DNA of 32,000 nucleotides from Staphylothermus hellenicus DSM 12710 (GTDB lineage Archaea; Thermoproteota; Thermoprotei_A; Sulfolobales; Desulfurococcaceae): NCBI RefSeq assembly GCF_000092465.1, contig NC_014205.1:420001-452000 (forward strand), in the 5' to 3' direction. Shown here one piece after another: positions 12,639-32,000 of the stretch (the first letter of the stretch is position 1; each line of letters opens with the position of its first letter). The position numbers and the translations under genes were made by a program. The notes below the pieces were generated by a model that ran no database searches, was not told where the DNA came from, and was given only the letters and a program-made list of their open reading frames with translations.

Positions 12639-12642
12639 TTGC

Positions 12643-16102: not shown

Positions 16103-16507
16103 ATGGATTTTTATGCTATCTTTTCTACCGCTATTCTATTAGCAGTTGGAGTATACCTACCGAATAAGCGGGGTAAAGTGATCCAGGAAGTCGCATATTT
16201 TTTATTCTTCAGCGAGATACTTTTAATAGAGGGCTCTCTTATCCCTTATATAGGAAAATGGGCAGAATCTAATGCCATATTGTTCTGCCTATTCTATATA
16301 ATACTGTCCTTCATATTCATCATCGTCTTTTTAAATAAGTTTGGAAAAGATATTTTAAAGGGATTCGGATTTAATGAATCCGGATCTTTGATTATAATTA
16401 TAATAATTGCCCTCTATGCTATTACAATGCCAGTTGGCGGTGTATTACTAGCTTTTTTGCATATTGCATATGGGAACTCGCCGCGGTCTCTATCGCTATT
16501 TACATAG
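16103..16507 (+). CDS. Small polytopic membrane protein (about 4 TM), first gene of the kinase-1 operon
   Basis: 134 aa with four hydrophobic segments. Gaps to the following genes are 21-28 nt. Confidence 0.55.
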   Translation: MDFYAIFSTAILLAVGVYLPNKRGKVIQEVAYFLFFSEILLIEGSLIPYIGKWAESNAILFCLFYIILSFIFIIVFLNKFGKDILKGFGFNESGSLIIIIIIALYAITMPVGGVLLAFLHIAYGNSPRSLSLFT

Positions 16508-16528
16508 ACCTTGGATTAAGAAGAATGA

Positions 16529-16864
16529 TTGAAAAGACTGTTGAAAAGATGGGGGAGAGGGACAAGGAAGATCATCGAATCTAAGATGAGAATAGATGAA
16601 GAATATAAGAAATCAGTAGGGATTATAATCGATGATGCTAAAACAATTGCAGAGCATGATCTAAAGACCGCCAAACACAAGCTACTAGATCTGCGGAAAA
16701 CCCCTCTTTACAAATCACTAAATGGAGAAGAGAGGGATACATTAGACAACCTGATTTTAGAAGCAATAGAAGTGAGACGAAGACATGATTTTAACGAAAT
16801 AGCTGAAACAATCGAAGAACGTATTAAAGAACTATGGAAAAGACACCAAAAAACAGGTAGTTAA
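16529..16864 (+). CDS. Helical cytoplasmic protein, unknown function
   Basis: 111 aa from a TTG. The first ATG is at 16586 (92 aa). Charged, helical. Confidence 0.5.
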   Translation: MKRLLKRWGRGTRKIIESKMRIDEEYKKSVGIIIDDAKTIAEHDLKTAKHKLLDLRKTPLYKSLNGEERDTLDNLILEAIEVRRRHDFNEIAETIEERIKELWKRHQKTGS

Positions 16865-16892
16865 AGTTAAAGAAGCTTTCCTATATATAATT

Positions 16893-17129
16893 ATGAGGGG
16901 ATATTGTTTGGATGAAGCTGTTTGTGACGGATTAGCGGCCTCACTGCTCGTCAAAAAATATTTTACAGAGGTTCTTGGAGTTGAGAATAGGGATTTTGAG
17001 ATTAAAAAAGTCAGTTATGAAAATGGAAAATTTATAATAGAGTGTTGTGTTCATGGTGGTATATATGATTCGCATTATCGTGCTATAGTTGATGAGAATT
17101 GTAGATTAATCAAGGTTCATAAGGTCTAA
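16893..17129 (+). CDS. Small Cys-rich protein, unknown function
   Basis: 78 aa with an ATG start. It ends 21 nt upstream of kinase 1. Confidence 0.5.
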   Translation: MRGYCLDEAVCDGLAASLLVKKYFTEVLGVENRDFEIKKVSYENGKFIIECCVHGGIYDSHYRAIVDENCRLIKVHKV

Positions 17130-17150
17130 TTAGATATAGGTGCAGATGCG

Positions 17151-18731
17151 GTGGATTGGAAGGGGGGTAAAAGAATATTAAAGCTTTCCGATGAAGCTTT
17201 AGAAGAAGCTATGAGGATGAGAGGTGAGGCTTTAGAAATAGCTGAGAAGATAAGAATTGAATCCGCCAAAACAATGTATTGGAAAAGGCTTCGGGGGAGG
17301 AATGTTTCTGCTAGTATAATAGATTTTATTCCGGCAACCGGAGTATATTATCCTGGTCAGCGAGTATGTTCTCGTCTGAGGTTCAAGAATACTGGGAATG
17401 TTAGGTGGACTTTCTACATTAGCTATAGTGTTCAGGACGGGAGTGGGAAGCGGTATAATATAAGATCGCATGCTGTAACACTTGATCCAGGCGAGGTTTC
17501 TAGCTGGCAATATATGTGTTGGGATGTACCCCGAAACCCTGTTACGGGATGGTATAAAGTTGTTATGGTTGTTTGGAAGACTATGCCGGAAAAAGATCCT
17601 AATGCTATACAACTTGACTTCAGAGAGAGGGCAAACTCATTCAGGGTTTTAAGGAAGGAAGATTTTGCCCCTGAGCTCGCCTCTTACTATTCAGATGCTG
17701 AGTATGTTGGAGGAGGGGGGTTTGGAAGGGTTTTTAAAGCTAGGAGGAGAGACGGGAAGATAGTTGCTGTGAAGATCCCTGTATCGCTTGATAGGGAGGC
17801 TGGGAAGAGCTTTATCAGGGAGTTAGAGGCTTGGAAGAGGCTTAGACATAGAAATATAATAAAACTATATGATTACAATATATTACCTATCCCGTACCTT
17901 GAAATGGAATATGCTGATAGGAGTCTAGAGGATTTGGAGAAGCCCATGGATGTTGGAGAGGCTGCAAGGATAATACTTGAGGTTGCTGAGGGGCTTAAAT
18001 ATGCTCATATGAACGGGATAATCCATGGAGATCTGAAGCCGCAGAATATCCTCCTCCTAGGAAATACTCCGAAGATCACTGACTGGGGACTAGCAAAGTT
18101 TAGGAAAGAGGATAGGTCTCCTAGGATATCTCCATTCACACCACTATATGCAGCGCCAGAGCAGCTGTTAGAAAAGTTCGGCGAAGTTGATGAGAGAACC
18201 GATATATGGCAGCTTGGCGCAGTCTTCTATGAACTAGTTACTGGCAGACCACCATTCTATAGTGATGATATGGTTGAGACTATGCATAAGATAATAAGTG
18301 AGAAGCCTGTGGAGCCAGGTAGAGTGAACCCGGAGGCGAGGAGTGTAGAGCACATTATAATGAAATGTCTTGAAAAGAGTAAGGATAAGCGTTATCAGAG
18401 CGTGGAGGAGCTTCAAAGAGATCTTGCAGAGTATCTGAAGATCAACTATAATAGATCCCTGGATGAGACCAGGATAAAAGGCGATCTTACAAGATCGAGA
18501 TTCTTCTGTGCCCAGCTAATTCTCCTCTCAGCAAGATACAAAGACTATATGGAGACTATAAAGTATCTTTCAATTTTTAAAGATTATGCATGTGAAGAGG
18601 AGAGAAGACAGATTAACAGCCTAATTGAGCAGATTAACATCAGAATGAAGAGGGAAATAGCGTTTGATGATGAACTTAAGAATAGGATAGAAACCCTTGT
18701 ATATAATGTGATGCTAAAGAAAAGACTCTAA
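17151..18731 (+). CDS. Hanks-type Ser/Thr protein kinase with N-terminal beta-sandwich-like domain and C-terminal helical domain (kinase 1)
   Basis: 526 aa with a GTG start. Kinase motifs: VGGGGFGRVFKA, VAVKIP, HGDLKPQN, DWG (in place of DFG), YAAPE, DIWQLG, KRYQS. The N-terminal ~170 aa resemble a CARDB-like beta-sandwich (RFKNTGNVRWTF...LDPGEVS...GWYKVVMVVW). No TM helix. Confidence 0.9.
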   Translation: MDWKGGKRILKLSDEALEEAMRMRGEALEIAEKIRIESAKTMYWKRLRGRNVSASIIDFIPATGVYYPGQRVCSRLRFKNTGNVRWTFYISYSVQDGSGKRYNIRSHAVTLDPGEVSSWQYMCWDVPRNPVTGWYKVVMVVWKTMPEKDPNAIQLDFRERANSFRVLRKEDFAPELASYYSDAEYVGGGGFGRVFKARRRDGKIVAVKIPVSLDREAGKSFIRELEAWKRLRHRNIIKLYDYNILPIPYLEMEYADRSLEDLEKPMDVGEAARIILEVAEGLKYAHMNGIIHGDLKPQNILLLGNTPKITDWGLAKFRKEDRSPRISPFTPLYAAPEQLLEKFGEVDERTDIWQLGAVFYELVTGRPPFYSDDMVETMHKIISEKPVEPGRVNPEARSVEHIIMKCLEKSKDKRYQSVEELQRDLAEYLKINYNRSLDETRIKGDLTRSRFFCAQLILLSARYKDYMETIKYLSIFKDYACEEERRQINSLIEQINIRMKREIAFDDELKNRIETLVYNVMLKKRL

Positions 18732-18779
18732 AACAACTAGATCACCTAAATTATAGAAATTATTAAAATATATAACATA

Positions 18780-18947: not shown

Positions 18948-19025
18948 TGTCTTTAAGGGGTAAGGATGCTTTGGTAAATGCTTGTGGGGAGGATGTTTGA
19001 TTAAGTTATTTTTTAACTTATATGT

Positions 19026-20297
19026 CTAGTCTAAGCTGCTTCTAAATGAAACCCCTCTATTCCTAAGCCACTTCTCCATCTCTTCGATCCTCTCCCTAGA
19101 ATTTGTTGCATTTACCTCTTCTATGGTCTTCATTATTATATTCTTGTTCAGCACAGGCTTCTCTCCCTTATTAAAAGCTTCCAATGCAGCCTTATCCTTT
19201 GCTCTCTCTAGTGCATTGATGATGTCGTGGATGCTATAAAGTTTCCTCCTCATAGCTGCTGCAATCTCATCTAAATCCTTTTCAGATAAGTCGATGAATA
19301 TGTCTTTGAGCTGTGAGAGTCTATCCTTTATCAAGAATATGATCTCCTTTTTATGGGGTAAACCCACATAAACTATGTTTCCACCAAACCTCCTAATAAT
19401 GTTCTCATCCAGATCCTCAGGATAATTTGTAGACGCTAGCATCAGTAGAAAACCTCTGGTTCCTCCAGGCCTCATCGCCAGGTCTATTAATCGACCGGTC
19501 TCCTGTTTAAATATATTCAATACATTGCCCATAGATGCGTTGATGGCTGCAGCTTTCTTACTAAATAGTCCTCCCAGTTCATCAAAGTATACCCCAATAT
19601 TTAATCCATCCTCTAACATTCGGTTAATGGTGTGGAAAACAGCCTTAGTAGTTTTTTCACTCTGCCCCATATACATCCCAAGCAGTCTAGAAGCATCTAT
19701 CTCAACATAGACCCACTTCCTCCCACTCTTCTTACATAAGCTCGCAATATACCCCATTAAACTCCTAGCAAACGTGGTTTTACCGGTACCACTAGGCCCT
19801 ACAAGCAAGGCGCAATAATTAGGTGAAAGATCCCTATATATCCTCTTAAACCTCAACTCAACTATTCTAAATATCTCCCCTAACACAGGGTTTGTCCTTT
19901 TAATATTGTTGAAAGATAAGATTTTACCAAATTCTTTTACATCAGTTTTAAAGTAAGAGTATATAGGTTTGATGACTATGTTGTACTCATCAGTATTCAG
20001 TGGAACGCCTACTTCGAGCGCCGCATCATTAATATACTTATCTATAACCCCCTCTCCCATCCGCTTAGGAAGTCTTCCCCCCTTAATTTTCTCGATTCTA
20101 TAGTATATTTTCTGGCCAATGGATTTAAGCCTTTCAGAAGTCTCCCTATTCTCTGTTACCCTAATTAAGGAAATTATTATGTTGAGAGATTTCCTGTAAT
20201 AATATAGGGCTGTATCTGGGTCATGTTTTTCATGCTCTCTTGCCTCAGTTATCAATCTATCAAGTTCATCAAGAAGTCTATGGAACTCTTGATACAT
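19026..20297 (-). CDS. MIT-domain AAA+ ATPase, Vps4/CdvC-like (divergent)
   Basis: 423 aa. The N-terminal three-helix MIT-like segment is LDRLITEAREHEKHDPDTALYYYRKSLNIIISLI...IGQKIYYRIEKIKG. Walker A LLVGPSGTGKTT; pore-loop-like GMYMGQSEK; Walker B VYFDELGG; ASTNYPEDLDENIIRRFG (sensor 1 / SRH of classical AAA); C-terminal helix IEEMEKWLRNRG. Confidence 0.85.
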   Translation of the reverse strand: MYQEFHRLLDELDRLITEAREHEKHDPDTALYYYRKSLNIIISLIRVTENRETSERLKSIGQKIYYRIEKIKGGRLPKRMGEGVIDKYINDAALEVGVPLNTDEYNIVIKPIYSYFKTDVKEFGKILSFNNIKRTNPVLGEIFRIVELRFKRIYRDLSPNYCALLVGPSGTGKTTFARSLMGYIASLCKKSGRKWVYVEIDASRLLGMYMGQSEKTTKAVFHTINRMLEDGLNIGVYFDELGGLFSKKAAAINASMGNVLNIFKQETGRLIDLAMRPGGTRGFLLMLASTNYPEDLDENIIRRFGGNIVYVGLPHKKEIIFLIKDRLSQLKDIFIDLSEKDLDEIAAAMRRKLYSIHDIINALERAKDKAALEAFNKGEKPVLNKNIIMKTIEEVNATNSRERIEEMEKWLRNRGVSFRSSLD

Positions 20298-20323
20298 ACC
20301 TTAAATACCCGCTCTCCATCCAA

Positions 20324-20953
20324 TTAAGCTTGTTCTTTATCCATGATCACTTTCTTCCACTCCTTCTCCGGGGCTACCTCCTCTTTAGGCTTTTTCTTAG
20401 CCTCCTTCATCTCGAGCTCTCTAAACTCCTTCTCCATCTCCTTATCAATACCCTCAATCTCCTCCCCTTCCTCTACTATAGAATATCCCTCCATCATCTT
20501 CTCCATTCTATCCTTATACTTCAGATATTTAGCTCTCTGAGCTACAGGATCGATATTTGCCATATCCGCCAGAGTATTTAGTATATCGATCCTACGATTT
20601 TCCTCTACCAAGGTAATTATCTTTATGATATTGTCAACCAAATAATATATTGCCTCATAATAATTTAGAGCCTTTTCCAAATGTTTTCTATACTGCACAT
20701 ACTGTACTTTCGCCATCTTCTGATGTATATCACTTCCTGTTTTTCTATAGATACTATAGTTTTCCTGCCAATCCTTATATATTGCACTTGCTAGTTCTCT
20801 AAAATGGTTTGCTTTAGCATATATTTCCTCTATCCTTCTAATTATCTCCAGACTTTTCCCCTTTAACTCTTCATTATCCAGCTCATCCACCAGCTTTTTA
20901 ACAGGTTCTATAGTATTCCGATAACTAATCCTAACCTCCTGCATCTTCGTCAA
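20324..20953 (-). CDS. ESCRT-III-superfamily-like coiled-coil protein B
   Basis: 209 aa. The TTG at 20953 overlaps the upstream stop; an ATG lies at 20944. A long helical hairpin (KMAKVQYVQYRKHLEKALNYYEAIYYLVDNIIKIITLVEENRRIDILNTLADMANI) is followed by an acidic region and a C-terminal DKEMEKEFRELEMK that resembles a MIM1 motif. Assigned from pattern only. Confidence 0.5.
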   Translation of the reverse strand: MTKMQEVRISYRNTIEPVKKLVDELDNEELKGKSLEIIRRIEEIYAKANHFRELASAIYKDWQENYSIYRKTGSDIHQKMAKVQYVQYRKHLEKALNYYEAIYYLVDNIIKIITLVEENRRIDILNTLADMANIDPVAQRAKYLKYKDRMEKMMEGYSIVEEGEEIEGIDKEMEKEFRELEMKEAKKKPKEEVAPEKEWKKVIMDKEQA

Positions 20954-21588
20954 TCCCCACTAGAATCAGAAAGTTTCTTCTCTATATCGCTCAGCTTGTC
21001 TACCTCCTCACTCTTATATGCTGGTTTTTCCTTTTTCTCTCTAGGTATGTGCCTCCCTGTAGCCTTAGCCTTAGCTAATTCTATAGCGTTCGTAATATCT
21101 TCTTCTTCAACATTTACCATATCGCCTTCCAACTGCCTAGAAATCATTTGGATAGCCTGTCCAAGGTACTGCCTTATATCTTCAACTCCCTTAAAAGGCT
21201 TTATAGGGATTTTGAAGCCGCCTCTGCTAAAAATGTTTCTCAGCTTCGAACTTATCTTATCAAATATAACACTCATATCATGTAATCCAATAGCTGTCTC
21301 AATATCATCAGCCATCATAATAAACTCGTAGCCTAGGTCCATGAAAAGCCTGGCATTTTTTTGAGCTCTAACAGCTCTGGCGGCTAAATGCCTGGTTTCT
21401 GGATGGGACTCACCCTTGACAAGCACAACCTTGCTTAATTCATCCATAAGTTTCTCAGCCTGTCTCTCCCTCTCCTTTGCTTTCTTCTTAAACTGTTCAC
21501 CGATCATTCCAACCTGAGCAAGCAGCTGATACAGCTCTTCCTCCTCATCTTTTCTTCGGAAAATTCTTCTAAAGACCAATAGGAACAC
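20950..21588 (-). CDS. ESCRT-III-superfamily-like protein A (Snf7/CdvB/PspA-like)
   Basis: 212 aa. A basic-hydrophobic N-terminus MFLLVFRRIFRRK precedes a helical hairpin (KKKAKERERQAEKLMDEL...ETRHLAARAVRAQKNARLFMDLGYEFIMMADDIETAIGLHDMSVIFDKISSKLRNI) that parallels the ESCRT-III alpha1-alpha3 pattern. The acidic C-terminus ends in the MIM-like EEVDKLSDIEKKLSD. Confidence 0.55.
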   Translation of the reverse strand: MFLLVFRRIFRRKDEEEELYQLLAQVGMIGEQFKKKAKERERQAEKLMDELSKVVLVKGESHPETRHLAARAVRAQKNARLFMDLGYEFIMMADDIETAIGLHDMSVIFDKISSKLRNIFSRGGFKIPIKPFKGVEDIRQYLGQAIQMISRQLEGDMVNVEEEDITNAIELAKAKATGRHIPREKKEKPAYKSEEVDKLSDIEKKLSDSSGD

Positions 21589-21739: not shown

Positions 21740-22402
21740 TTGGGTACGTTGGGTGGAGAGAAGAAAGGTTATGCGGAGAAGCTTTATTGGGAACTACAAT
21801 CGAAAAAGGAAATCGACTTAGGAAAGCATGGGGGATACAGAGTATATTATAAGAATAAGTTCGATAGGGAATACCTGCTCTTTCTAGAGAGAAGGAGAAA
21901 ACTATATTCCTTCTTCAGCTCCCCAGCGGTTAGAAAACTACTAATCGATATTCGAGAAAATAATGATGACTATGAAGCTCTCTATCATTTAAGCCGAGTA
22001 GATAAGATTATCGTGATCAAATATACCAAGGATATTGGTGGAAACCTGCCTCCCCTACCAGCAGGTGATAAGGTAGAGGTCATAGTAATAGAGCCCGAAA
22101 CACTGCTCAACAAAGCTGACCCAGATCTAGGAATTAAGATATTCCCTGACAAGAAGGACTCTCTATCAAGAATCCTATATAATAAGTATCTTTACAAGGA
22201 CTTAAGAGTGGACAAAATTAAATCCTATATAAGACGCAGGATTGAGGAGGCTAAGGCTAGTAATGGAAAATTATGGGTGTGTTTGAAGGAGCTGAAGAAG
22301 GAATACAAGTATGAGAATGAAGAATTCTGGAAAGAATTTATCCATATGATAAAGAATGATGAAGATTTTATCTATCAAGATGAATATATAACAACTAGAT
22401 AA
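21740..22402 (+). CDS. Hypothetical cytoplasmic protein, divergent from the ESCRT-III/AAA operon
   Basis: 220 aa. Only TTG starts are available (21740 or 21749); there is no in-frame ATG near the 5' end. ATTATAA lies about 30 nt upstream. No motif recognised. Confidence 0.5.
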   Translation: MGTLGGEKKGYAEKLYWELQSKKEIDLGKHGGYRVYYKNKFDREYLLFLERRRKLYSFFSSPAVRKLLIDIRENNDDYEALYHLSRVDKIIVIKYTKDIGGNLPPLPAGDKVEVIVIEPETLLNKADPDLGIKIFPDKKDSLSRILYNKYLYKDLRVDKIKSYIRRRIEEAKASNGKLWVCLKELKKEYKYENEEFWKEFIHMIKNDEDFIYQDEYITTR

Positions 22403-22426: not shown

Positions 22427-23476
22427 TTAGGAGATGATGTAGAGGAAATAATATGTGAATGAGACGAACTCAGGCTCTTTATCCCTACACCATAGGTGAT
22501 AATAAATAGTTGAATCCTGGCCTATTAGATCTTGTATCATCCTATCAAGGCTGTATCTAGGAAAATAGGCGAATATAAGCGATAACAATAGTACAGTTAG
22601 CAGTCCAGCTATAATAAGATAGCCTCCCAGGGTCTTTCCAAGATAGATAGATAAGAAATTACCTACAACTAAGTAATAATATGGTATCATGTACAGAAAT
22701 ATTATCTGAGCATTTAATGCATATCTAAGATCTTTCCTCACCTCCTCATTCACTATATTATCGAAGAAGCCTAACTTGTTTATCACTTCCCTTGCTTTGA
22801 AAAACTTCTTATTATAGAACCCTATTACAAGCAGGATCAGTGAGAATATTAAAATCTCATTCCCTAGTATTTGTCCAAAATAGTAGATGGGATTTGAGAA
22901 TGTTTTATACGATATATCTAAAAACACGTCATGCATTAATGTAGGCTTTACGGTTTTGATATAATAAGCTCCTACCATTGTCTCATATACGGGGATGAAC
23001 AGATATTTGTAAACGATCCGGAAGAATGCAGCTATATTTGCTAAGAGTGGATAATATCTAAGTATATGTAAACCATAAATGTCTAGTCTAAATAAATCAA
23101 GAAAACCTAGATCATTATTTCTACGGGATGCTATCCTCGCTATTGAAAAGAACAGTGGTTGAGAAAATATTAATATAGCCATAATTAAGTCTAAAACCAT
23201 ATTAGCCGGGGTTAAAACATACTTGGTCCATGGACTGCTAAAAAAGTATAATGAGCCTTTAAAAATGGCTAGAAATAATATAATGAATATTATGTACCCC
23301 TTATATCTACTGCCCCGCCTCTTTATAGCTAGAATCCTATGCTTAATTATCTCCTCTTCCTCGGTTTGAATTATCTGTGTCTGATCCCTGCATATAACTT
23401 CTCTAAGCCTGGGATTGTATCTGTAGTTGTCTAGATAAGTATTTATAATTCTATGTAAGTCATTATTAGCTGGCAT
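22427..23476 (-). CDS. Polytopic membrane protein (about 6-7 TM), unknown function
   Basis: 349 aa. A cytoplasmic N-terminal ~65 aa is followed by multiple hydrophobic segments. It starts 18 nt downstream of the 23495-24391 gene. Confidence 0.65.
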   Translation of the reverse strand: MPANNDLHRIINTYLDNYRYNPRLREVICRDQTQIIQTEEEEIIKHRILAIKRRGSRYKGYIIFIILFLAIFKGSLYFFSSPWTKYVLTPANMVLDLIMAILIFSQPLFFSIARIASRRNNDLGFLDLFRLDIYGLHILRYYPLLANIAAFFRIVYKYLFIPVYETMVGAYYIKTVKPTLMHDVFLDISYKTFSNPIYYFGQILGNEILIFSLILLVIGFYNKKFFKAREVINKLGFFDNIVNEEVRKDLRYALNAQIIFLYMIPYYYLVVGNFLSIYLGKTLGGYLIIAGLLTVLLLSLIFAYFPRYSLDRMIQDLIGQDSTIYYHLWCRDKEPEFVSFTYYFLYIIS

Positions 23477-23494: not shown

Positions 23495-24391
23495 TTAATG
23501 TATTAGAGATTCTATAGATTTATTTAGGACGTGTTTTAATGTATCGGTTGAGAATTTAGACAACGGCCCCAGATGCTCATTAAATATTAGGCAGGGTTCA
23601 AACTCGTTCTTAATAATACTGAATATTACACCCCCTAAAAGATCCCTATACCGCTTTATCTCCAGCTCATTACTAGCTATTTTACTACATAATTCTGTAA
23701 TGCATTTTAAAATGCAGAGTTTGAACCTGAAAAATGTTTTCAGCAACGAAAACCCAGGTATTCTATCCTTGATCTCATTGAATTCTTTACTCAACTTATC
23801 ATATTTATCGCTAAGAACGCTATGTAGCTCTTTAATCATTTTCGTACTAGCTTTCCTATCCATTCCCGATATATCGTAGCTGGACTGGTATAGCATAGGC
23901 CTGAAACACACATTAATCACCTCATATAGCTTAATCAGTTTGCCTATTTCCTCCGCTTTATATCGCTCCTCTATCTTGTCAAGTATTGAAGCCCTCCTAA
24001 TAACATAGTTCATGAGAGAAATATCGGGGGTCTGTGAACTGTTTTCATCATAGCTGATCAGAGATGGAGGAGCTGTTTCCAAATCAGATAATTTATCATG
24101 TTTAGAGGAGATCAAGCATTTGTAGAGATAATCCTTATATTCTTCTAAAATATTTCTTAGAAAATCCAGTTTATCAATCATTTCTTCTATATTTGTAGAT
24201 GCAGGGGAACCTTCTTTACAATATTTCTTAATAGAGTCCTTAACTTCTCTTACTTCATTGAGGATTTTATTTGCTTCTCTAATTAAATCTTTTGGAGTAA
24301 CAAAGTGTTCCAGATTATATATAAGGCATAGGCCCTCATCCTCAAGCTTAGTAATTTTATTGGCTAGATCTCCACGACAACCATTACCCAT
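23495..24391 (-). CDS. All-helical cytoplasmic protein, unknown function
   Basis: 298 aa with an ATG start. Divergent from the 24562 gene across a 170-bp, extremely AT-rich spacer. Confidence 0.6.
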   Translation of the reverse strand: MGNGCRGDLANKITKLEDEGLCLIYNLEHFVTPKDLIREANKILNEVREVKDSIKKYCKEGSPASTNIEEMIDKLDFLRNILEEYKDYLYKCLISSKHDKLSDLETAPPSLISYDENSSQTPDISLMNYVIRRASILDKIEERYKAEEIGKLIKLYEVINVCFRPMLYQSSYDISGMDRKASTKMIKELHSVLSDKYDKLSKEFNEIKDRIPGFSLLKTFFRFKLCILKCITELCSKIASNELEIKRYRDLLGGVIFSIIKNEFEPCLIFNEHLGPLSKFSTDTLKHVLNKSIESLIH

Positions 24392-24561: not shown

Positions 24562-26463
24562 GTGTATGCATTGGAAACAGGAATAGATGTTTGGAAACTG
24601 CTTAAGGAGGAAGTTTTAAGGCCCGTAGATAAAGTTCTCTCATATGATTTAGAGGCTCTCCGCAGAACTAGTGAGGACAAAAGGGAGAGGCTATGGGGCG
24701 AGGTAGTGGATGCTCATGAAAAATTTGAAGAATTCATGTCCGAGCTTCCCGGTGCGGTAAGGAGGGAGGTTTTGGGCGAAATAGAGCTTGCAAAGCTACT
24801 GCTCGCCACAGCTGCAAAGGTGAATGGCGAGAACAACCCAATAATTGATTTATTCAGCTCTGAGGAGCTTAAGCTCGTGGAGAGGTTTGAGAGGTATAGT
24901 GTTTTCGATATTCTAACTATTGATGAGATTGTTGAGAGAGTTGCGAGGAGGGATGAGATCTATGACCTGATCATGGAATACTATAAGAATGAGTACTCCG
25001 ATCTCGACAAGATCCTTGAGGATCCGAGGATCAGGAGAAGCCTAAGATATGCTTTCAAGAAGAGGTATAAGAAGAGGCTGGACAAGGTTAAGGAGGGGGT
25101 TAAAGCATATGTTGAGAAATACGGCCCCATCATCATGGTTAGGCAGATAGAGGAGAAAATATGGAGGAAGATAAAGGAGTCTGAAGAAGAGAGAAAAATG
25201 ATTATGGAAAGACTTAGGAGAAGGATGGAAGAGCTTTCCTTGAAGCTGAGGCCCCTCGAGGATGTTGAGAGAAAAAGCAGTGTCTTCATGGACAGACTCC
25301 ACGATATAGAAAGCAGTGTTTTCTTTGGAGAAAAGACCGGCTACGACGAGCATGAAAAGGATGAGCTACTGAGGAGATACCTTGATTTTGAAAAGCTTCT
25401 AGCCGAGCAGGTTGAGGCGATAGAGAAGGAGAAGAGAGAGCTTGAGAATAGGAGGAAGGAGCTGGAGAAAGCTGAACAAGAATATAGGAGAAAAGCTGAG
25501 GAGGAGGCGCAGAGGATTATTGAAAGCGAGCTCAGAAAGATCGAGGATCTAGGGAAGGAGCTGGCTAAGAAAAAGGAGGAGCTGGAGGAGGAGGTAAAGA
25601 ATGTAAGGATGAAGAGGCTTGAGATAGAGGAGACACTGAAGCAGGTAAGGGAGGCTGAGAAGGGAGAGTACCGCTTAGTTACAAGTGAGGATGCTAGGCT
25701 GGCAGAGCTAAACTTTATAGCAAGATTTGATGAGAAAATGCATGCCTTTCCACTGAGAATTCACTCCCCAATAGAGGGTAGAGAGTATGTTGTTAAATCA
25801 TGGCGTGAAGGAGAGAGGCTAAAGATGAGTGAGAGCGTGGCGGAGGGCATCCCATCAAACCTTAGGTTAAGATATGTTATCACCGAGAAAAAACATAAAT
25901 TCTTCGGGGAGAGAGTTAGGAAAGTCGTTATCGAGGCAATATCCTTCAACCATCTCAGAGAGTTTAAGGAATTCGGGTTTGATGCGAGGAAGGCAAATCT
26001 TGCAGAGTTTTTAAAGCTTGTAGAAGGAGCTATAGATAAAGCTGAAATCGGGAAATACTTCCACGTCATGGGCATAGCATCTCCAACAGGCTGGGATGAT
26101 AGAGTTGTAAGGGAAATATCATCAAGCGAGTTTGCAAGAAACTATGTAAGCAGATATATCTCAGTATGCCTAATAGATTCAATCACAGGAGACATCTACT
26201 ACAACCCCGCCGATGAAAGAATAACCAAATTCATCGAATTCTTCAAACCACAATTTAAAAGAGAAAGAGTTGAGAGCGTGAAAAAAACAATCCTCAACAA
26301 ACTTTCAACTAAAGGATATGTCGTCCTAGACGATGTAGTAAATGAGACTAGGGAGGAGAGAAGAATAGTGCTCAAAGCCTTCTACGACCTAGAGAAAGAA
26401 GGAAAGGGAAAGGTGAAGAATGTCAAGGATATTGGAACTGTGTTTGATGCTGAATCCATGTGA
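24562..26463 (+). CDS. Large coiled-coil protein with C-terminal globular domain, co-oriented with and 11 nt upstream of kinase 2
   Basis: 633 aa with a GTG start. A central ~150-aa E/K/R-rich coiled coil (EKEKRELENRRKELEKAEQEYRRKAEEEAQRIIESELRKIEDLGKELAKKKEELEEEVKN) is followed by a C-terminal ~250-aa mixed domain (HVMGIASPTGWDDRVV...) that ends in a possible winged-helix-like tail. Confidence 0.7.
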   Translation: MYALETGIDVWKLLKEEVLRPVDKVLSYDLEALRRTSEDKRERLWGEVVDAHEKFEEFMSELPGAVRREVLGEIELAKLLLATAAKVNGENNPIIDLFSSEELKLVERFERYSVFDILTIDEIVERVARRDEIYDLIMEYYKNEYSDLDKILEDPRIRRSLRYAFKKRYKKRLDKVKEGVKAYVEKYGPIIMVRQIEEKIWRKIKESEEERKMIMERLRRRMEELSLKLRPLEDVERKSSVFMDRLHDIESSVFFGEKTGYDEHEKDELLRRYLDFEKLLAEQVEAIEKEKRELENRRKELEKAEQEYRRKAEEEAQRIIESELRKIEDLGKELAKKKEELEEEVKNVRMKRLEIEETLKQVREAEKGEYRLVTSEDARLAELNFIARFDEKMHAFPLRIHSPIEGREYVVKSWREGERLKMSESVAEGIPSNLRLRYVITEKKHKFFGERVRKVVIEAISFNHLREFKEFGFDARKANLAEFLKLVEGAIDKAEIGKYFHVMGIASPTGWDDRVVREISSSEFARNYVSRYISVCLIDSITGDIYYNPADERITKFIEFFKPQFKRERVESVKKTILNKLSTKGYVVLDDVVNETREERRIVLKAFYDLEKEGKGKVKNVKDIGTVFDAESM

Positions 26464-26474: not shown

Positions 26475-29312
26475 ATGGTTTTTGGATGGTTTAAAAAGAA
26501 GGGATCAGAAGAGCTTAAAAAGAAGGCAAAAATATTGAAAAGGAAAATAAACAAATTTACAACACTCCTATGGATCTATAAGACAGGCGGTTATGTTGAT
26601 GCTGTCTCAGTCTCAGCAGATGGTTCATATATTATAGCAGGATCAGATGATGGTAGGGTTTATTTCTTTAACAGGGATGGAGAGCTTTTATGGAGCTATG
26701 AGACAGATGATAAGGTTTATAGTGTCTCAGTCTCAGCAGATGCCTCTTATATTGTAGCGGGATCAGGGGATGGTGGGGTTTATTTCTTTAACAGGGATGG
26801 GCTCCTATGGATCTATAAGACAGGAGATCTTGTTCACAGTGTCTCAATATCATCAAATGCCTCATATATTATAGCAGGATCAGGGGATCATAATGTTTAC
26901 TTCTTCAATAGGGAAGGGAAACTCTTATGGAGCTATGAAACAGGCAATGATGTTCGAAGTGTCTCGATCTCATCAGATGGCTCGTACATTGTTGCGGAGT
27001 CAGGGTGGGTAGTTTATCTTTTCAATATGGAAGGAAAACTTCTATGGAGCCATAAGATAGGAAGTGATGTTTATGATGTCTCGGTTTCAGCAGATGGCTA
27101 TGTTGTAGCAGGATCGAAAGATTATAATGTTTATTTCTTCAGTAGAAGTGGAGAGCTCTTATGGAGCTATAAGACAGGAGGTCCCGTTTATAGTGTCTCA
27201 GTCTCAGCAGATGGTTCATATATTATAGCAGGATCAGATGATGGTAGGGTTTATTTCTTTAACAGGGATGGAGAGCTTTTATGGAGCTATGAGACAGATG
27301 ATAAGGTTTATAGTGTCTCAGTCTCAGCAGATGCCTCTTATATTGTAGCGGGATCAGGGGATGGTGGGGTTTACTTCTTTGGGTTTGATTCAGAAAAATA
27401 CTTGGCAAGGCTGTATGGTTCAACAATAGAGAAGTGGAGGGAGGAAGGCTATGATGTTTCTGAGCTGGAGGCTGAGATAAGTTATTCAAAAATAAAAGAT
27501 TATGAGGCGAGGATTCAGAGGCTGAAACAGCTTGAAAGCGAACTGAGCTCTCTGAATATAAAAGGGATGAACAAAATAAAGGCGAAATTAAAAGATCCTA
27601 GGAGAGTGGAGGAGCTGGAAGAAGAGGTTTCATTGCTGAAGCAGGCTTTAAAAGCTATTAATGCGGCACGAACGGCATTGATTGAGACAGGAAAACTATG
27701 TGATGTCTCAGAAGCTGAAGAAATACTGAGGAGAGCGGAATCAAAATTTGGGACTGGAGATTATGCCGGAGCTGTTTCTGATGCTAATGAATGTGGAAGA
27801 GTACTGGAAAAGATAAAGGAGAGATCGAAGCCAGAAATAGAGGTAGAATTACCCATAAAATCACTCAAACCAAACTACTGGAAGGCCTCCAGCCTAATCC
27901 TGAAGAACAAAGGGAATATGCATGCTGAGGATGTAAGAATAGAGTTCTCAAAAGAGGTTGAAGTAAGAGGTCTAAAAGAGTTGAGCATAAAGGCTGGAGA
28001 GGAGAAGAAAATAACCATTTCTCTGAAGCCTAAGGAGGTTGGAGAAGTTCCTGTGGAAGTAAGGGTATCCTATAAAGACGGTGTTGGAAGGGAATATTTC
28101 TCAGAGAGAACATTTATAATTCTAGTTTCTGAGGAGGTTCCTAAAACTCCTCCACCTGTAGTGGCAGAGACACTCCCTCCAGAATCGGTGAGCAAACACG
28201 TTACCCCAGGAATATCTCCGGCGGAATTCACTCCATCACCAACAACACCAAGGACATTTCCCCCAGAACTGGCAAGCAGATATACTGGTGTAGAATATGT
28301 TGGTAGGGGAGGTTTTGCAAGGGTTTTCAAGGCGAAAAGGAAGGATGGTAAGGTTGTGGCTGTGAAGATTCCAGCAGTACTGGATGAGGCTACTGGGAAA
28401 TCGTTTTTGAGGGAGATAGAGAATTGGACAAAGCTGAAGCATGAGAATATTGTCAGGGTTTATGATTACAACATATTGCCAATTCCATATTTTGAGATGG
28501 AATTATGTGATAAATCGCTTGCAGAACTTGATAAGCCAATGGATGTTAGGGAGGCTGCATGGATAGTGTTCAGAATAGCTGAGGGCTTGAAGTATGCTCA
28601 TGCAAGGGGGATAATTCATAGAGATTTAAAGCCTCAGAACATTATGTTAAAGGATGGAATACCGAAGATAAGCGACTGGGGGTTGAGCAAGGTCATAACT
28701 GAATCATCGTCAAGCCTTGCATCCTTTACACCATTATATGCTGCTCCAGAACAGATAACTGGGGGTGTGAAGGATCAGAGGACGGATATATGGCAGCTTG
28801 GAGTAATATTTTACGAGCTCGTCACCGGAGAACTACCATTTAAAGGCGATAACCCTGTAGAGGTAGGGATGGCGATAGCAACCAGAGAACCTATTAAACC
28901 ATCCAGGCTTAATCCTGAAGCTAAGGATGTTGAGCCAATTATAATGAAGTGCTTGGAGAAGAATAAGGAGAAGCGTTATCAAAGTATGGAAGAGCTTCAA
29001 AGAGATCTTGCCGAATACTTAAAGGTTGAATATAAGAGATCTCTTAGTGAGAGCAGAGCTAAGAAGGATATTGCGAGGTCAAAACTGTTCTGCGGAGATC
29101 TCGTCCTACTCTCAGCCATGCTCAGAGACTACCATGAAGTTTTAAAGCATCTCTCAGTCCTCAAGGACTATGCTGGAGAAGAAGGGAGAAAAGAAATAGA
29201 CATGTTGATCAAGGAGCTTGAGCTTAGAATTAAGAGGAAAATAGAGTTTGATGATGAGCTTGTTGAAAGGATAAAGGTTTTGGTATACAAGGTTAAGATG
29301 AGCAGGAAGTAG
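26475..29312 (+). CDS. Multidomain Hanks-type Ser/Thr kinase: 7-bladed beta-propeller, helical linker, CARDB-like beta-sandwich, Pro-rich linker, kinase, C-terminal helical domain (kinase 2)
   Basis: 945 aa. Seven repeats of about 40 aa (LLWSYETGxxVxSVSVSADGSYIxAGSxDxxVYFFNRDGE). Kinase motifs: VGRGGFARVFKA, VAVKIP, HRDLKPQN, DWG, YAAPE, DIWQLG, KRYQS. The kinase and C-terminal region is clearly paralogous to 17151-18731. GAGGTGA SD upstream. No TM helix or signal peptide. Confidence 0.9.
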   Translation: MVFGWFKKKGSEELKKKAKILKRKINKFTTLLWIYKTGGYVDAVSVSADGSYIIAGSDDGRVYFFNRDGELLWSYETDDKVYSVSVSADASYIVAGSGDGGVYFFNRDGLLWIYKTGDLVHSVSISSNASYIIAGSGDHNVYFFNREGKLLWSYETGNDVRSVSISSDGSYIVAESGWVVYLFNMEGKLLWSHKIGSDVYDVSVSADGYVVAGSKDYNVYFFSRSGELLWSYKTGGPVYSVSVSADGSYIIAGSDDGRVYFFNRDGELLWSYETDDKVYSVSVSADASYIVAGSGDGGVYFFGFDSEKYLARLYGSTIEKWREEGYDVSELEAEISYSKIKDYEARIQRLKQLESELSSLNIKGMNKIKAKLKDPRRVEELEEEVSLLKQALKAINAARTALIETGKLCDVSEAEEILRRAESKFGTGDYAGAVSDANECGRVLEKIKERSKPEIEVELPIKSLKPNYWKASSLILKNKGNMHAEDVRIEFSKEVEVRGLKELSIKAGEEKKITISLKPKEVGEVPVEVRVSYKDGVGREYFSERTFIILVSEEVPKTPPPVVAETLPPESVSKHVTPGISPAEFTPSPTTPRTFPPELASRYTGVEYVGRGGFARVFKAKRKDGKVVAVKIPAVLDEATGKSFLREIENWTKLKHENIVRVYDYNILPIPYFEMELCDKSLAELDKPMDVREAAWIVFRIAEGLKYAHARGIIHRDLKPQNIMLKDGIPKISDWGLSKVITESSSSLASFTPLYAAPEQITGGVKDQRTDIWQLGVIFYELVTGELPFKGDNPVEVGMAIATREPIKPSRLNPEAKDVEPIIMKCLEKNKEKRYQSMEELQRDLAEYLKVEYKRSLSESRAKKDIARSKLFCGDLVLLSAMLRDYHEVLKHLSVLKDYAGEEGRKEIDMLIKELELRIKRKIEFDDELVERIKVLVYKVKMSRK
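26603..26789 (+). repeat. Intragenic direct repeat, copy 1 (propeller blades 1-2)
   Basis: This 187-nt stretch is identical to 27194-27380 except for one base (26783 T versus 27374 C). Offset 591 nt, in frame. Confidence 0.95.
27194..27380 (+). repeat. Intragenic direct repeat, copy 2 (propeller blades 6-7)
   Basis: See copy 1. The encoded peptide VSVSADGSYIIAGSDDGRVYFFNRDGELLWSYETDDKVYSVSVSADASYIVAGSGDGGVYFF occurs twice. Confidence 0.95.
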
Positions 29313-29380
29313 TGGTGCTTAAAGCCTTCTATGACCTGGAGAAGAAGGAGAAAGGTAGTGGAATATATCAAGGATGTTAA
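29312..29380 (+). pseudogene. 3'-terminal remnant of a homolog of the 24562-26463 coiled-coil gene
   Basis: 29315-29378 aligns with 26368-26433 at roughly 80 percent identity by eye. The remnant reads VVLKAFYDLEKKEKGSG..., against RIVLKAFYDLEKEGKGK in the intact gene. It begins at the stop codon of kinase 2. Confidence 0.45.
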
Positions 29381-29621
29381 ATTTTGCTTAAACCTTGTCT
29401 GATACGAGTTTGCTTCATAACAATTATAACTTATCCTCTTCTCACCAGCTTATTGCCTTGTCAATCACCTCTGTTATTTCGGCCTTTCTTCTAATATATG
29501 TAAAATATGCTAGGTATCTATGCTAAGAATAAGCAGGAATGGCTACAACACCCTTATAAATCAGGTAATCGTTAATATGAGGGTAAAATCCCTCTTATTC
29601 ATCATTCCACTCTAAACAGCA

Positions 29622-29986
29622 TCAACTGCATAAGATTTTGCTTGTTCTGATAGTTTGAATATTTTCCGTTGACAAATTAATTTGAGACAATAGCTTTTCA
29701 GATTCTGCAATATTAAAACCCTTGAATTTCTCGAGAGAAATAGTGGATCTTGCATTTTCAGTAGAAGTTTGAACCATAAACAGGAATAACGTTGAAGGAG
29801 CAAACATTACTATCACTCTGACCCTGTTGTCATACAAGGCCCGCATGCTAAGAGTGAAACACTATTAATCAAATTGAAAAAGTAGACCTTCTTATCTCTT
29901 GATCCTGCCACAACATATATGCCATCCAATGAGGCCGAGACATTATCAACATGGTCTTCCATATTGTAGCTCCATAGATGCCCCAT
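29622..29986 (-). pseudogene. Frameshifted remnant of a propeller-containing (kinase-2-like) gene
   Basis: My minus-strand translation from 29986 gives MGHLWSYNMEDHVDNVSASLDGIYVVAGSRDKKVYFFN, one propeller blade of the kinase-2 type, then a stop. A second frame (track ORF 29622-29846) contains STISLEKFKGFNIAESEKLLSQI, which resembles STIEKWREEGYDVSELEAEIS directly after the propeller in kinase 2. Confidence 0.5.
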
Positions 29987-30144
29987 ATAAACCTCTTATC
30001 TACAGCCTTCCAATACATAAAAGAAGGCTGTAAAACATAAAGGTTATAAATTCATAGACAAATATATAAATGTTAGGCCCTTTGTTTGAATGTTGTGAAT
30101 GAAAAATATACTCGCCTTATAATAGTTGGCCTGGAGGCGGGTGT

Positions 30145-32000
30145 ATGGATGATCTGAGCAGGTCTCAGAATTTATCTTCTCAGAACTGTAATCTGTTCAT
30201 GGACACTGCAGTTATAAGTGATAATAAGCCTGTTTCTGAGAAATCCGAGATTGCATGTGTCATATCAAAAGCATTTAATATTGCAGCTAAAGATCATATA
30301 AAATTAGAATTAACCTCAATAATTGTGGGTATTATTTTATTAGTGTTCTCTATATTTCTATTAATTCTTGGAGGAGTTGGAGTAATCGATTTAGCTGCAG
30401 GATTAATTGGTATTGTAGTGTTGGCATGTATAGGAGCTTTTATTATATTATACGGTTTATTTATCCATAAACCTGATGAAATATCGATGCTTTCAAAAGT
30501 ATATGTTGTCAGTCATCTTATTCCATATAAACCAGGATCGGCGTTACTTTTCGATGGAACTGGTATAATACCAGAGCAGGTTATGGAATATAAAGATATA
30601 CCTCTTGCCAAAATCAAAGAGTTGTCTAGTAAATTACCTAGCTCACCAATATCATATAAAAACGAAACTGCATTGGTTGATATCTTGGATCAAATAAAAC
30701 AGCTTACAGGGAAAATTAAAAAATACCAATTTAAGGCACCTGTCGTGCCGAATAGCAACTTATATGTAAATGCAGTTCTTGACAGTCTTCCCTACTGTGT
30801 AAAGGGTGCCCCCTTAAGAAATCCTTTAGGAACAAAAATTTCTATACAAGATGCAGTTCAATATAGACAGGAAATTGAACGACTAGAAGAAGGTAAAGAA
30901 GCCATAGATACAATGAATGAGGTAAAGAATACTATAACACATAAATCAAAACCTTTCATAGACAATCTTATAAAATGTTTAAATGATATAGATTCCTATA
31001 TATCAAATATCGCAGAATTACTGAGAGAACGATTTATTAATGGGTTCAATATTCATGCGGATCCAAAAGCGGATGCTGAGTATGGTTATGAATACGTCAA
31101 TTCTAAATACCATATCAAAGTAGGATCATCAGAAAATAAAAACATTTCTAACCCCATCAACACTTTTCAGCGTGTGATTGATTATTTTGACGAGAGTATT
31201 AGAAGAGAAATTGGAAGAATAAGAAAGGATGGAGAAAGAAGAATTAAAGAGAGAAAAGAGAGAGCTGAGAGTGAAGAAAGGTTGATACGGCAAAACTACG
31301 ATTTGCAGATCGAGAGTAAAAAGTCGGAAAAATCAACCTATGAGAAGCAAGCAGAAAATGCATATAGAGAATATAGGTCCTCATATAATCAATATAAATC
31401 ATATTTGGAGGAGGCAAGGAGAGCGAGGAGTGGAGAGTATCCTGACTATGAGAAAGCTCAGCATTATGAGGAGATGGCTCAATACTATAAAATGCAAGCA
31501 GATGAATATTATTCTCAATATGAAGATGCGGAATCAAGGGCAGAAGCTTTAGAAAATATAATAAACAAACTTGAGAGCCGGAAAAAAAGGGAAATCAAGC
31601 AAATAAGAGATAAGGCAAGTCGGGATATAGCCAGTATTAAAGAGGAGATAAAAAATGAAATATTAGATCTAAGAAAATTTATTAACGAGATTATTGAAAA
31701 GAGAAATACCCAGATAGAAATGTTCGAAAAAATATATAATACTCTACTATCCTCAGAAAAGGAATTACAATCAGCACCATTTAATAATAGAAAGAATACA
31801 ATAATGGAATTACAAAGTTCAATATTTTCAGTTTTAGATGATAGAATAAAAGAGAGGTCTAAGGTTCTTCAACAAATTGGATCTTTCAAAATTAATATAG
31901 ATATGCAAAAACCAACCAGTATATACATTCCCTTCTGGATTATAATTGTAAAGAGGAAAAAAGGTCCTGAAACTATTATATTCCCCCCGTTAAAAATAAT
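30145..32000 (+). CDS. Membrane-anchored (2 TM) large coiled-coil protein, partial, continues past the right edge
   Basis: Absent from the ORF track because it has no stop in the window. My translation from the ATG at 30145 (GGAGG at 30133-30137; in-frame TGA at 30100-30102 upstream) runs 618 codons without a stop: MDDLSRSQNLSSQNCNLFMDTAVISDNKPVSEKSE...LTSIIVGIILLVFSIFLLILGGVGVIDLAAGLIGIVVLACIGAFIILYGLFIHKPDE... A long charged helical region follows, with a Tyr-rich stretch (AYREYRSSYNQYKSYLEEARRARSGEYPDYEKAQHYEEMAQYYKMQADEYYSQYEDAESRAEALE). Confidence 0.7.
   Translation, partial: MDDLSRSQNLSSQNCNLFMDTAVISDNKPVSEKSEIACVISKAFNIAAKDHIKLELTSIIVGIILLVFSIFLLILGGVGVIDLAAGLIGIVVLACIGAFIILYGLFIHKPDEISMLSKVYVVSHLIPYKPGSALLFDGTGIIPEQVMEYKDIPLAKIKELSSKLPSSPISYKNETALVDILDQIKQLTGKIKKYQFKAPVVPNSNLYVNAVLDSLPYCVKGAPLRNPLGTKISIQDAVQYRQEIERLEEGKEAIDTMNEVKNTITHKSKPFIDNLIKCLNDIDSYISNIAELLRERFINGFNIHADPKADAEYGYEYVNSKYHIKVGSSENKNISNPINTFQRVIDYFDESIRREIGRIRKDGERRIKERKERAESEERLIRQNYDLQIESKKSEKSTYEKQAENAYREYRSSYNQYKSYLEEARRARSGEYPDYEKAQHYEEMAQYYKMQADEYYSQYEDAESRAEALENIINKLESRKKREIKQIRDKASRDIASIKEEIKNEILDLRKFINEIIEKRNTQIEMFEKIYNTLLSSEKELQSAPFNNRKNTIMELQSSIFSVLDDRIKERSKVLQQIGSFKINIDMQKPTSIYIPFWIIIVKRKKGPETIIFPPLKI

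Follow-up and report, generated by a model that had tools for sequence, protein, structure and literature searches.

Does the genome of Staphylothermus hellenicus encode, beside its cell-division genes cdvA, cdvB, and cdvC, a second and separate ESCRT system? The question is raised by a 32-kb stretch of its chromosome (NC_014205.1, positions 420001-452000; hereafter the window, to which all positions refer unless the genome is named), whose right-hand part, 16103-32000, contains genes for two Ser/Thr kinases, an AAA+ ATPase of the Vps4 family, and two small helical proteins. An earlier note on this DNA had read that part as an island in which kinases may control an accessory ESCRT-III/Vps4 module, perhaps for defense or repair. 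We consider it likely, with a probability of about two in three (0.68), that the region is a divergent and rearranged copy of the kinase-associated “Main”-type ESCRT system, probably transferred, which stands beside the canonical CdvABC system.

The “Main” clade of archaeal ESCRT systems was defined by Makarova et al. in 2024 (mBio 15:e00335-24, PMC10936438). Its members comprise Vps4, the Snf7-family proteins arCOG09747 and arCOG09749, arCOG09748, and arCOG08177, the last of which (Cas2-like plus DUF3568) is said to occur in all systems of the clade, and many of the genomes also carry a Ser/Thr kinase (STK) and a phosphatase (STP). The hosts are Thermococcales, Methanococcales, Methanomicrobiales, and Halobacteriales, and the kinases have Ig-like repeats and, at the C-terminus, a PCI-like helical domain. 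For this class of systems, the authors proposed a role in the sorting of phosphorylated proteins and/or in vesicle formation (PMC10936438). Table S2 of the same paper lists this exact locus as a 24-gene neighborhood and flags within it SHELL_RS02415 (kinase 1), SHELL_RS02420 (Vps4, arCOG01307), SHELL_RS02450 (arCOG09748), SHELL_RS02455 (kinase 2), and SHELL_RS02480 (a third kinase). The earlier note had supposed that no kinase-ESCRT-III-AAA neighborhood had been described; because systems of this kind, and indeed this very locus, had already been catalogued, in the text, in Tables S1 and S2, and in the Vps4 tree of that paper, this claim of novelty fails. In other words, the locus is a known kind of kinase-linked accessory ESCRT locus and not a new system. 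Our literature search found no further paper that mentions these arCOGs. What may be new is that two unannotated proteins, both orphans in sequence, are candidates for the missing ESCRT-III subunits of the locus, together with the explicit point that S. hellenicus, unlike Staphylothermus marinus, carries two distinct ESCRT systems.

The genes on which the argument turns are the following (aa, amino acids).

17151-18731, plus strand: Ser/Thr kinase 1 (arCOG03682), with an N-terminal beta-rich domain, a Hanks kinase domain, and a C-terminal helical domain.
19026-20297, minus strand: divergent Vps4-family AAA+ ATPase (arCOG01307, WP_013142813), in which a helical domain at the N-terminus precedes a single classical AAA cassette.
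20324-20953, minus strand: 209-aa helical protein (206 aa from the RefSeq start; SHELL_RS02425), directly upstream of the AAA gene; a weak ESCRT-III/PspA-like candidate.
20950-21588, minus strand: 212-aa helical protein (209 aa from the RefSeq start; SHELL_RS02430), first gene of the AAA operon; an orphan in sequence and the best ESCRT-III candidate.
24562-26463, plus strand: 633-aa arCOG09748 “ESCRT system protein”, with a helical domain at its N-terminus, a coiled coil, a globular domain, and a C-terminal winged helix.
26475-29312, plus strand: Ser/Thr kinase 2 (arCOG03682), with a beta-propeller, a helical linker, an Ig-like/CARDB-like domain, a kinase domain, and a C-terminal helical domain.

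The open reading frames (ORFs) of 16103-32000, their order, their strands, and their short intergenic distances all agree with the earlier description, as does the statement that no metabolic or informational gene can be recognized there, which was borne out by Pfam scans. The AAA protein is 100% identical to the annotated S. hellenicus protein, and the coordinates are anchored by VapC, whose gene at 434353-434808 in the genome corresponds to window 14353-14808. The island genes are split over five transcription units, with orphan membrane and helical proteins interleaved among them.

How widely is such a set of genes conserved? We scanned a genome collection with an alignment of 27 kinase sequences, obtained 78 loci, called all of their ORFs, and searched these with the proteins of the island and of Thermococcus sp. 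AM4. Together with three loci fetched earlier, 80 loci carry the kinase, and it is out of these 80 that the gene families were counted. An arCOG09748-type protein was found in 29 loci, each of two paralogous Snf7-like proteins of ~200 aa in 25, a PP2C phosphatase in 24, a Vps4-type AAA ATPase of ~400 aa related to that of the window in 23, and an arCOG08177-type protein of ~170 aa in 17. Snf7-like genes occur together with arCOG09748 in 20 of the loci and together with Vps4 in 17. The typical gene orders, in our one-letter codes, are S-C-A-B-K...P-V in the Thermococci and, in the Methanomicrobiales, an A-B-V operon (A and B being the Snf7 pair and V being Vps4) beside K-P-C. The kinase, AAA, coiled-coil, and small ESCRT-III-type genes thus form a genuinely conserved neighborhood among archaeal loci, which is the co-occurrence that the earlier note had asked to be checked. 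A genome scan with an alignment of two arCOG09748 sequences found nothing, because the patterns derived from it were too narrow.

The kinase island of Thermococcus sp. AM4 illustrates the arrangement: a 608-aa homolog of the 633-aa protein is followed by two proteins of ~200 aa with typical Snf7-like features. This locus (L002:1-21617 in our numbering, CP002952.1 260418-282034) shows, in addition, an extreme local expansion of the kinase family, with at least five kinase genes, including a 1370-aa double kinase and a 1528-aa propeller-PEGA-kinase. These kinases lie around the ESCRT genes and the gene of an 863-aa PP2C, with a SLFN/AlbA_2 ATPase gene following.

It should be mentioned that some of the loci lie on contigs with bacterial labels. 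Two contigs designated “Dehalococcoidia bacterium” (L039:5567-12913 of JBATUN010000023.1, an 81-kb contig, and L005:1-11020 of JALPXQ010000008.1) carry one or more archaeal-type kinases and a Vps4-like AAA ATPase. The first also encodes a PP2C and a 199-aa protein whose Pfam Snf7 score, 29 bits, lies above the gathering threshold of 27.3, and the flanks of this locus look bacterial (InlB B-repeat/Listeria-Bacteroides repeats, GLUG, and an MTHFR with C-terminal domain); the second has genes for a 209-aa Snf7-like protein without a Pfam match, for an SPFH-zinc-ribbon protein, and for a VAT_N-transglutaminase. Provided that they are correctly binned, these contigs would represent an ESCRT-III/Vps4 module in the Bacteria; according to the 2024 survey, bacteria have no ESCRT components (PMC10936438). 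Kinase matches were also obtained in metagenome-assembled genomes (MAGs) labeled Deltaproteobacteria (L052) and Bacillota (L072).

The kinases link the S. hellenicus locus to this class. Kinase 1 (Pfam Pkinase, E = 1e-45; motifs HGD, DWG, and APE) and kinase 2 (Pkinase, E = 1.5e-47) are 49% identical over 501 columns (E = 3e-153) and have the C-terminal helical domain in common, which bears out the claim that they are two paralogous Hanks-type kinases. Kinase 2, which starts 11 nt after the arCOG09748 gene, had been described as a propeller-CARDB-kinase; its PQQ/WD40-type beta-propeller and its kinase domain stand, whereas the Ig-like/CARDB match falls below the Pfam cut-off (E = 1.8e-3, 18.9 bits vs. 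22.7). No transmembrane-like segment was found in either kinase. Hundreds of proteins, from Thermococcus, Methanothermococcus, Methanocaldococcus, Archaeoglobales, Methanomicrobiales, and others, are related at ~50% identity to the kinase including its C-terminal domain, and kinase 1 itself is ~50% identical to kinases of Thermococcus, Methanothermococcus, and Archaeoglobales. The propeller of kinase 2 is 39% identical to that of a 1026-aa kinase in a related locus (L004). The third kinase of the island lies just outside the window, at genome positions 454246-456078 (SHELL_RS02480, Table S2 of PMC10936438).

A further link is the 633-aa arCOG09748 protein, which is 45% identical over its full length to a protein of a Halobacteriota MAG (L004:1557-3503, E = 8.6e-180), 43% identical to a relative in Ca. 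Ethanoperedens (L030), and 27.6% identical over 653 columns to the 608-aa protein of Thermococcus sp. AM4 (E = 5e-42). Its C-terminus gives a weak winged-helix match.

The ATPase is more distant from its counterparts. It is 25-31% identical to the ~400-aa Vps4 proteins of “Main”-type loci, and its closest database relatives, itself aside, are Cdc48-like proteins with 26-30% identity. The best NCBIfam model is CdvC, with 58 bits against a cut-off of 650 and over model positions 137-364 of 370. When profiles were compared with hhalign, the ATPase domain and C-terminus of the protein aligned with the ~400-aa Vps4 proteins of the related loci with a probability of 99.3% (E = 1.5e-20), and the C-terminal part alone aligned with a probability of 89% (E = 2e-6). 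In our alignment of the family (A3), the protein retains Walker A GPSGTGKT, Walker B DE, the pore loop MYMG with its aromatic residue, the sensor-1 TN, and the arginine-finger RRF. A profile search of the PDB with the Vps4 alignment was uninformative because the two-domain Cdc48/p97 proteins dominate its scores.

What, then, are the two small proteins encoded directly upstream of this ATPase? In Table S2 of the 2024 survey neither is flagged: SHELL_RS02430, the 212-aa protein, has no arCOG, and SHELL_RS02425, the 209-aa protein, is assigned to arCOG01695 (RqcH) (PMC10936438). The latter assignment is presumably spurious. The published arCOG assignments of two other proteins of the island also appear doubtful, namely those of the 134-aa protein to PotE and of the 349-aa protein to MATE flippases, neither of which has a Pfam or NCBIfam match here. 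The 212-aa and 209-aa ORFs match nothing in Pfam, NCBIfam, PADLOC, or the PDB sequences, and the 212-aa protein found only itself among 5.8 billion proteins and in an exhaustive phmmer search over 1.84 billion cluster representatives. They are also not paralogs of one another, since BLASTP shows no similarity between them.

The evidence that these two proteins are ESCRT-III-like comes from predicted structure and from gene position. Because the homolog search with the 212-aa protein gave no alignment, the AlphaFold2 models are single-sequence models. That of the 212-aa protein is confident (pLDDT 80.2, pTM 0.70) and has helices at residues 2-58, 63-100, 105-122, 135-154, 162-177, and 197-208, which form a long alpha1-alpha2 hairpin followed by three short helices and by a helix at the C-terminus, that is, an ESCRT-III-like architecture. 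In a Foldseek search of the PDB, all of its matches with a probability of 0.89 or more are CdvB2, CHMP1B, IST1, or Vipp1 (TM-scores 0.36-0.54), and it best resembles the CdvB2 filaments of Sulfolobus, CHMP1B, and IST1 (probability 0.97-0.99, TM-score ~0.45-0.54, E ~0.1). The model of the 209-aa protein is poor (pLDDT 65), with a long helical hairpin at residues 28-117; its top Foldseek matches are Vipp1, PspA, CHMP1B, and Asgard ESCRT-IIIB (E 0.2-1, probability 0.2-0.7). The two genes have the position and size of the Snf7 pair in the A-B-Vps4 operons, with the 209-aa gene at the second Snf7 position, and they share with the AAA, kinase 1, and arCOG09748 genes a raised G+C content at third codon positions (GC3). 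Of the “ESCRT-III x2” in the earlier note, then, the 212-aa ORF has support at the level of the fold and the 209-aa ORF weak support of that kind, and neither is supported by sequence similarity. We put forward tentatively, as a possibility somewhat short of even odds, that the two proteins are an unrecognized, sequence-orphan ESCRT-III pair that escaped arCOG, Pfam, and the 2024 survey and that would complete a second, kinase-controlled ESCRT machine.

The N-termini of the 212-aa protein, MFLLVFRRIFRRK (21540-21588), and of kinase 2, MVFGWFKKKGSEE (26475-26530), look similar to the N-terminal motif, hydrophobic and then basic, of the Thermococcus Snf7-like pair, MSFFSRFFGKKNP and MRIRDMFGRKN (L002:3542-3580 and 4138-4180). 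Such a hydrophobic-then-basic N-terminus may be a common, putative membrane-binding amphipathic element.

If the region is a “Main”-type system, its parts might work together as follows. The 212-aa and 209-aa proteins would be polymer-forming, ESCRT-III-type substrates of the ATPase, whose hexamer, using its N-terminal helical (MIT-like) domain and its pore loops, would disassemble or remodel the polymers on the membrane. The arCOG09748 protein could connect the polymer with cargo or with the kinases, for example by a winged helix that binds the C-terminal helical domain of the kinases. The kinases, for their part, would sense ligands or proteins through the beta-propeller and Ig-like domains and would phosphorylate cargo or components of the system, thereby switching assembly on. 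The core of the earlier proposal, a phosphorylation-controlled ESCRT-III/Vps4 module, agrees with the synteny analysis and with the published inference for this class of loci.

A number of results weigh against this assignment, and several of them also speak for its most serious competitor. As for the small proteins, neither shows any sequence or profile similarity to ESCRT-III; hhalign comparisons of both with the two euryarchaeal Snf7 families (arCOG09747 and arCOG09749) gave probabilities below 1%, whereas these two families match each other at 99.5%. In the Foldseek searches with the two single-sequence models, no E-value was significant, the best for the 212-aa protein being ~0.06. The basic N-terminal half and acidic C-terminal half typical of ESCRT-III are absent from the 212-aa protein (net charges 0/+1) and mild in the 209-aa protein (+3/-6), compared with +13/-20 and +9/-18 in the Thermococcus Snf7 pair. 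As for the ATPase, residues 19-72 of its N-terminus match Pfam MIT only below the threshold (E = 0.0047, 17.4 bits vs. 30) and the N-terminal domain does not align with the N-termini of the related Vps4 proteins in hhalign (probability 0.6%), so that, of the MIT-AAA protein in the earlier note, the AAA ATPase holds and the MIT domain is unproven. Pfam Vps4_C gives no match in this protein, whereas 17 of the 20 Vps4-family proteins in the alignment have one. The Vps4 tree list of the 2024 survey has the window ATPase as entry 2, between two DPANN outliers and not in a named clade (PMC10936438). Of the remaining “Main” components, arCOG08177 was not found in the window by BLASTP, phmmer, hhalign, or tblastn, and PP2C was not found there by Pfam, BLASTP, or tblastn; neither is in the published 24-gene neighborhood. 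Finally, the propeller gene remnant at 29819-29977 is a sign of some decay.

The failure to detect the small proteins by sequence is nevertheless weak evidence against ESCRT-III, because accepted euryarchaeal Snf7-like proteins also escape the profiles: those that we tested (the AM4 pair and L004) have no match to Pfam Snf7 (PF03357), and a profile of the AM4 199-aa-type Snf7-like family (alignment A4) found no ESCRT-III chain in the PDB.

Taken the other way, the same results could mean that the island is a decaying or repurposed remnant, in which the true Snf7, arCOG08177, and phosphatase genes are gone, the 212-aa and 209-aa ORFs encode unrelated helical proteins that are specific to the lineage, and the fast-evolving AAA ATPase and the kinases now act elsewhere, for example in the remodeling of some other protein complex, or do nothing. 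This is the strongest of the alternatives, and we hold it to be unlikely. The extreme divergence of the ATPase (Pfam AAA at only E = 1.5e-15, while the best of the 20 Vps4-family proteins in the alignment reaches 8.5e-41), its outlying place in the tree list, the missing components, the lack of charge asymmetry in the 212-aa protein, the propeller fragment, and the six or seven orphan ORFs that lie between the conserved genes would all be expected of a remnant, and long-branch solo Vps4 proteins in the Thermococcales have been noted as probable cases of subfunctionalization (PMC10936438). On the contrary, all of the ORFs are intact and the catalytic motifs of the ATPase and of the kinases are conserved; the 212-aa model is confidently ESCRT-III-like; the small pair sits exactly where the Snf7 genes sit in the A-B-Vps4 operons; and it has the same atypical GC3 as the ATPase gene.

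A comparison with better-known systems also places the locus closest to the “Main” clade. With that clade it shares a Vps4-family ATPase, arCOG09748, multiple arCOG03682 kinases whose sensor domains are propellers or Ig-like and whose C-terminal domain is helical, and two helical proteins of ~200 aa encoded directly upstream of the ATPase. It differs from the clade in that its host, a crenarchaeon of the Desulfurococcales, has CdvABC as well, that arCOG08177 and PP2C are missing from the window, that the small proteins are sequence orphans not recognized as Snf7, that the window kinases lack transmembrane segments, that the genes are spread over five transcription units with orphans between them, and that the ATPase is a long-branch outlier. 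The CdvA-CdvB-CdvC system resembles the locus in its ESCRT-III-type fold and Vps4-type ATPase, the CdvB2 filaments being the best structural match of the 212-aa model, but the locus has no CdvA, its small proteins have no winged helix, and there is no sequence similarity. We know of no association of CdvABC with kinases. To the eukaryotic ESCRT-III/Vps4 machinery the likeness lies in the predicted hairpin, short helices, and C-terminal amphipathic helix of the 212-aa protein and in an ATPase with a single AAA cassette, an N-terminal helical domain, and a C-terminal helix; unlike that machinery, the locus has no MIT/MIM pair demonstrable by sequence, no ESCRT-I or ESCRT-II, no ubiquitin system, and no charge polarity in the 212-aa protein. 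Bacterial Vipp1 and PspA are among the weak top structural matches of the 209-aa model, which are too weak to assign it to a branch; unlike PspA/Vipp1, the locus shows no PspA match in Pfam and no PspBC or PspF partners, and the partner is a Vps4-like ATPase. The Halo_FHA systems of haloarchaea (an FHA-CdvA-like protein with Vps4, ESCRT-III, STK, and STP) are likewise phosphorylation-linked ESCRT modules, and some of them carry arCOG09748 and STK (PMC10936438), but Pfam found no FHA-domain protein in the window.

Could the island instead be an anti-virus defense or membrane-repair system, as the earlier note had suggested, in which the kinases sense infection or damage and trigger membrane remodeling or abortive infection? 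It adjoins cas6, vapBC, and a mini CRISPR-like array (12642-12800, between a gene for a 383-aa hypothetical protein and cas6), which has three 26-nt repeats, two identical and one 81% identical, at a spacing of 66-67 nt; cas6 and vapBC lie to the left of the kinase/ESCRT region. The locus is also variable and probably horizontally acquired, some related loci adjoin SLFN/AlbA_2 or HEPN genes, and the kinase domain matches PADLOC kinase models. However, the PADLOC matches are only generic ones, to kinase domains (mad6, PD-T4-6, and Stk2) and to AAA proteins (TRIP13 and IetA), and the other eight island proteins tested gave none; across the 78 loci, the conserved neighborhood includes no defense gene family, and cas6 and vapBC are not part of it. 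Because of this, the adjacency of cas6 and vapBC is best read as co-location in a variable region, and the idea of defense or repair, left without specific support, appears improbable. A tandem 24-nt direct repeat, with copies 75% identical, lies just downstream of cas6 (14073-14120) and may be a chance match.

The weakest alternative, that the AAA protein and the small helical proteins are simply the CdvC and CdvB of cell division, for which one could cite CdvC as the best NCBIfam model of the former and CdvB2 as the best structural match of the 212-aa protein, is effectively refuted by the canonical cdvA-cdvB-cdvC locus at 1134822-1137605 of the genome, with further CdvB paralogs at 286158 and 551360, by the CdvC score far below its cut-off, and by the Vps4 tree list, in which the canonical CdvC is entry 40, among the Desulfurococcales, and the window ATPase entry 2 (PMC10936438). 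The check for a canonical locus elsewhere, which the earlier note had called for, thus leaves the island as a separate set of genes.

How did a “Main”-type locus come to stand beside CdvABC in a crenarchaeon? The GC3 of the genes is shifted: it is 0.42-0.43 in the 212-aa and 209-aa genes, 0.415 in the AAA gene, 0.41 in kinase 1, and 0.50 in the arCOG09748 gene, compared with 0.28-0.36 in the housekeeping genes of the window. The closest relatives of the kinases and of the arCOG09748 protein are euryarchaeal, with 43-55% identity, and there are no other Desulfurococcales among the top 120 relatives of the kinase. In the published tables, S. marinus has a single Vps4 and no entry for arCOG09748 or arCOG03682 (PMC10936438). 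From the GC3 shift, from the euryarchaeal kinship of the kinase and arCOG09748, and from the lack of the locus in S. marinus, we infer that it was probably acquired horizontally, from a thermophilic euryarchaeon. There is no tRNA gene within the window, which speaks against a tRNA-linked integration. Another member of the Desulfurococcales, Ignicoccus hospitalis, has an arCOG09748-assigned protein of ~156 aa (IGNI_RS02245, 384422-384892) next to a WD40-repeat protein (Table S2, PMC10936438), possibly a piece of a similar module that was transferred.

The kinase-linked ESCRT systems of non-Asgard archaea are known from comparative genomics only, and the roles proposed for them include the sorting of phosphorylated proteins, vesicle formation, and other membrane remodeling. 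S. hellenicus has both such a module and a full CdvABC, and S. marinus lacks the module; therefore, the two species offer a clean comparison for the role of the accessory system. If the 212-aa and 209-aa proteins are indeed an orphan ESCRT-III pair, S. hellenicus would provide a natural example of a small genome with two ESCRT systems that are independent of each other. ESCRT-III would then cover more sequence space than is now known, and surveys based on sequence profiles would under-count these proteins. It would also mean that ESCRT-III subunits can diverge past all sequence detection and yet keep their partner Vps4.

The other features of the island are as follows.

16103-16507, plus strand: 134-aa polytopic membrane protein, an orphan with five hydrophobic transmembrane-like segments; first gene of the kinase-1 operon.
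16529-16864, plus strand: 111-aa helical protein, an orphan, starting 22 nt after the 134-aa gene.
16893-17129, plus strand: 78-aa Cys-rich protein, an orphan.
21740-22402, plus strand: 220-aa hypothetical protein, an orphan, divergent from the AAA operon; by hhalign not arCOG08177; GC3 0.40.
22427-23476, minus strand: 349-aa polytopic membrane protein, an orphan with at least four transmembrane-like segments.
23495-24391, minus strand: 298-aa helical protein, an orphan, upstream of the 349-aa membrane protein and in the same operon.
29819-29977, minus strand: one or two blades left over from a beta-propeller repeat gene; in a tblastn search of the window with the ORFs of the loci, they match propeller regions of kinases at E-values down to 2e-7.
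30145-32000, plus strand: N-terminal 618 aa of a 705-aa coiled-coil membrane protein with two transmembrane segments (arCOG13744; listed in Table S2 of PMC10936438), whose gene runs beyond the window to genome position 452262.

The 134-, 111-, 78-, 220-, 349-, and 298-aa ORFs have no relatives in any of the 78 loci examined, and the 134-aa and 349-aa membrane proteins match nothing in Pfam, NCBIfam, or PADLOC. Profile comparisons of the orphans with the euryarchaeal Snf7 families and with arCOG08177 were likewise negative. The 111-aa gene probably belongs to the operon of the 134-aa gene, because the gap between them is 22 nt. Two further statements of the earlier note hold for the right end of the window: the gene remnant exists, as the propeller-repeat fragment, and the last ORF has the hydrophobic stretch expected of two transmembrane segments, at residues 50-110. 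The arCOG13744 protein is 27% identical (E = 1.4e-34) to the product of an ORF immediately beside arCOG08177 and arCOG09748 genes in a Thermococcus MAG (L034:2-2075, minus strand). Because of this neighbor relationship, it may be a sporadic accessory of these ESCRT loci; of the 78 loci, this is the only one with a relative.

On the left flank of the window lie sulfate-activation genes, AspRS, phosphoglycerate mutase, and further housekeeping genes. The sulfate-activation cluster (2296-6538) consists of an APS kinase, an ATP sulfurylase with a PUA-like domain, and a transporter of the CitMHS/Na-sulfate symporter family, and a type I phosphodiesterase gene adjoins it.

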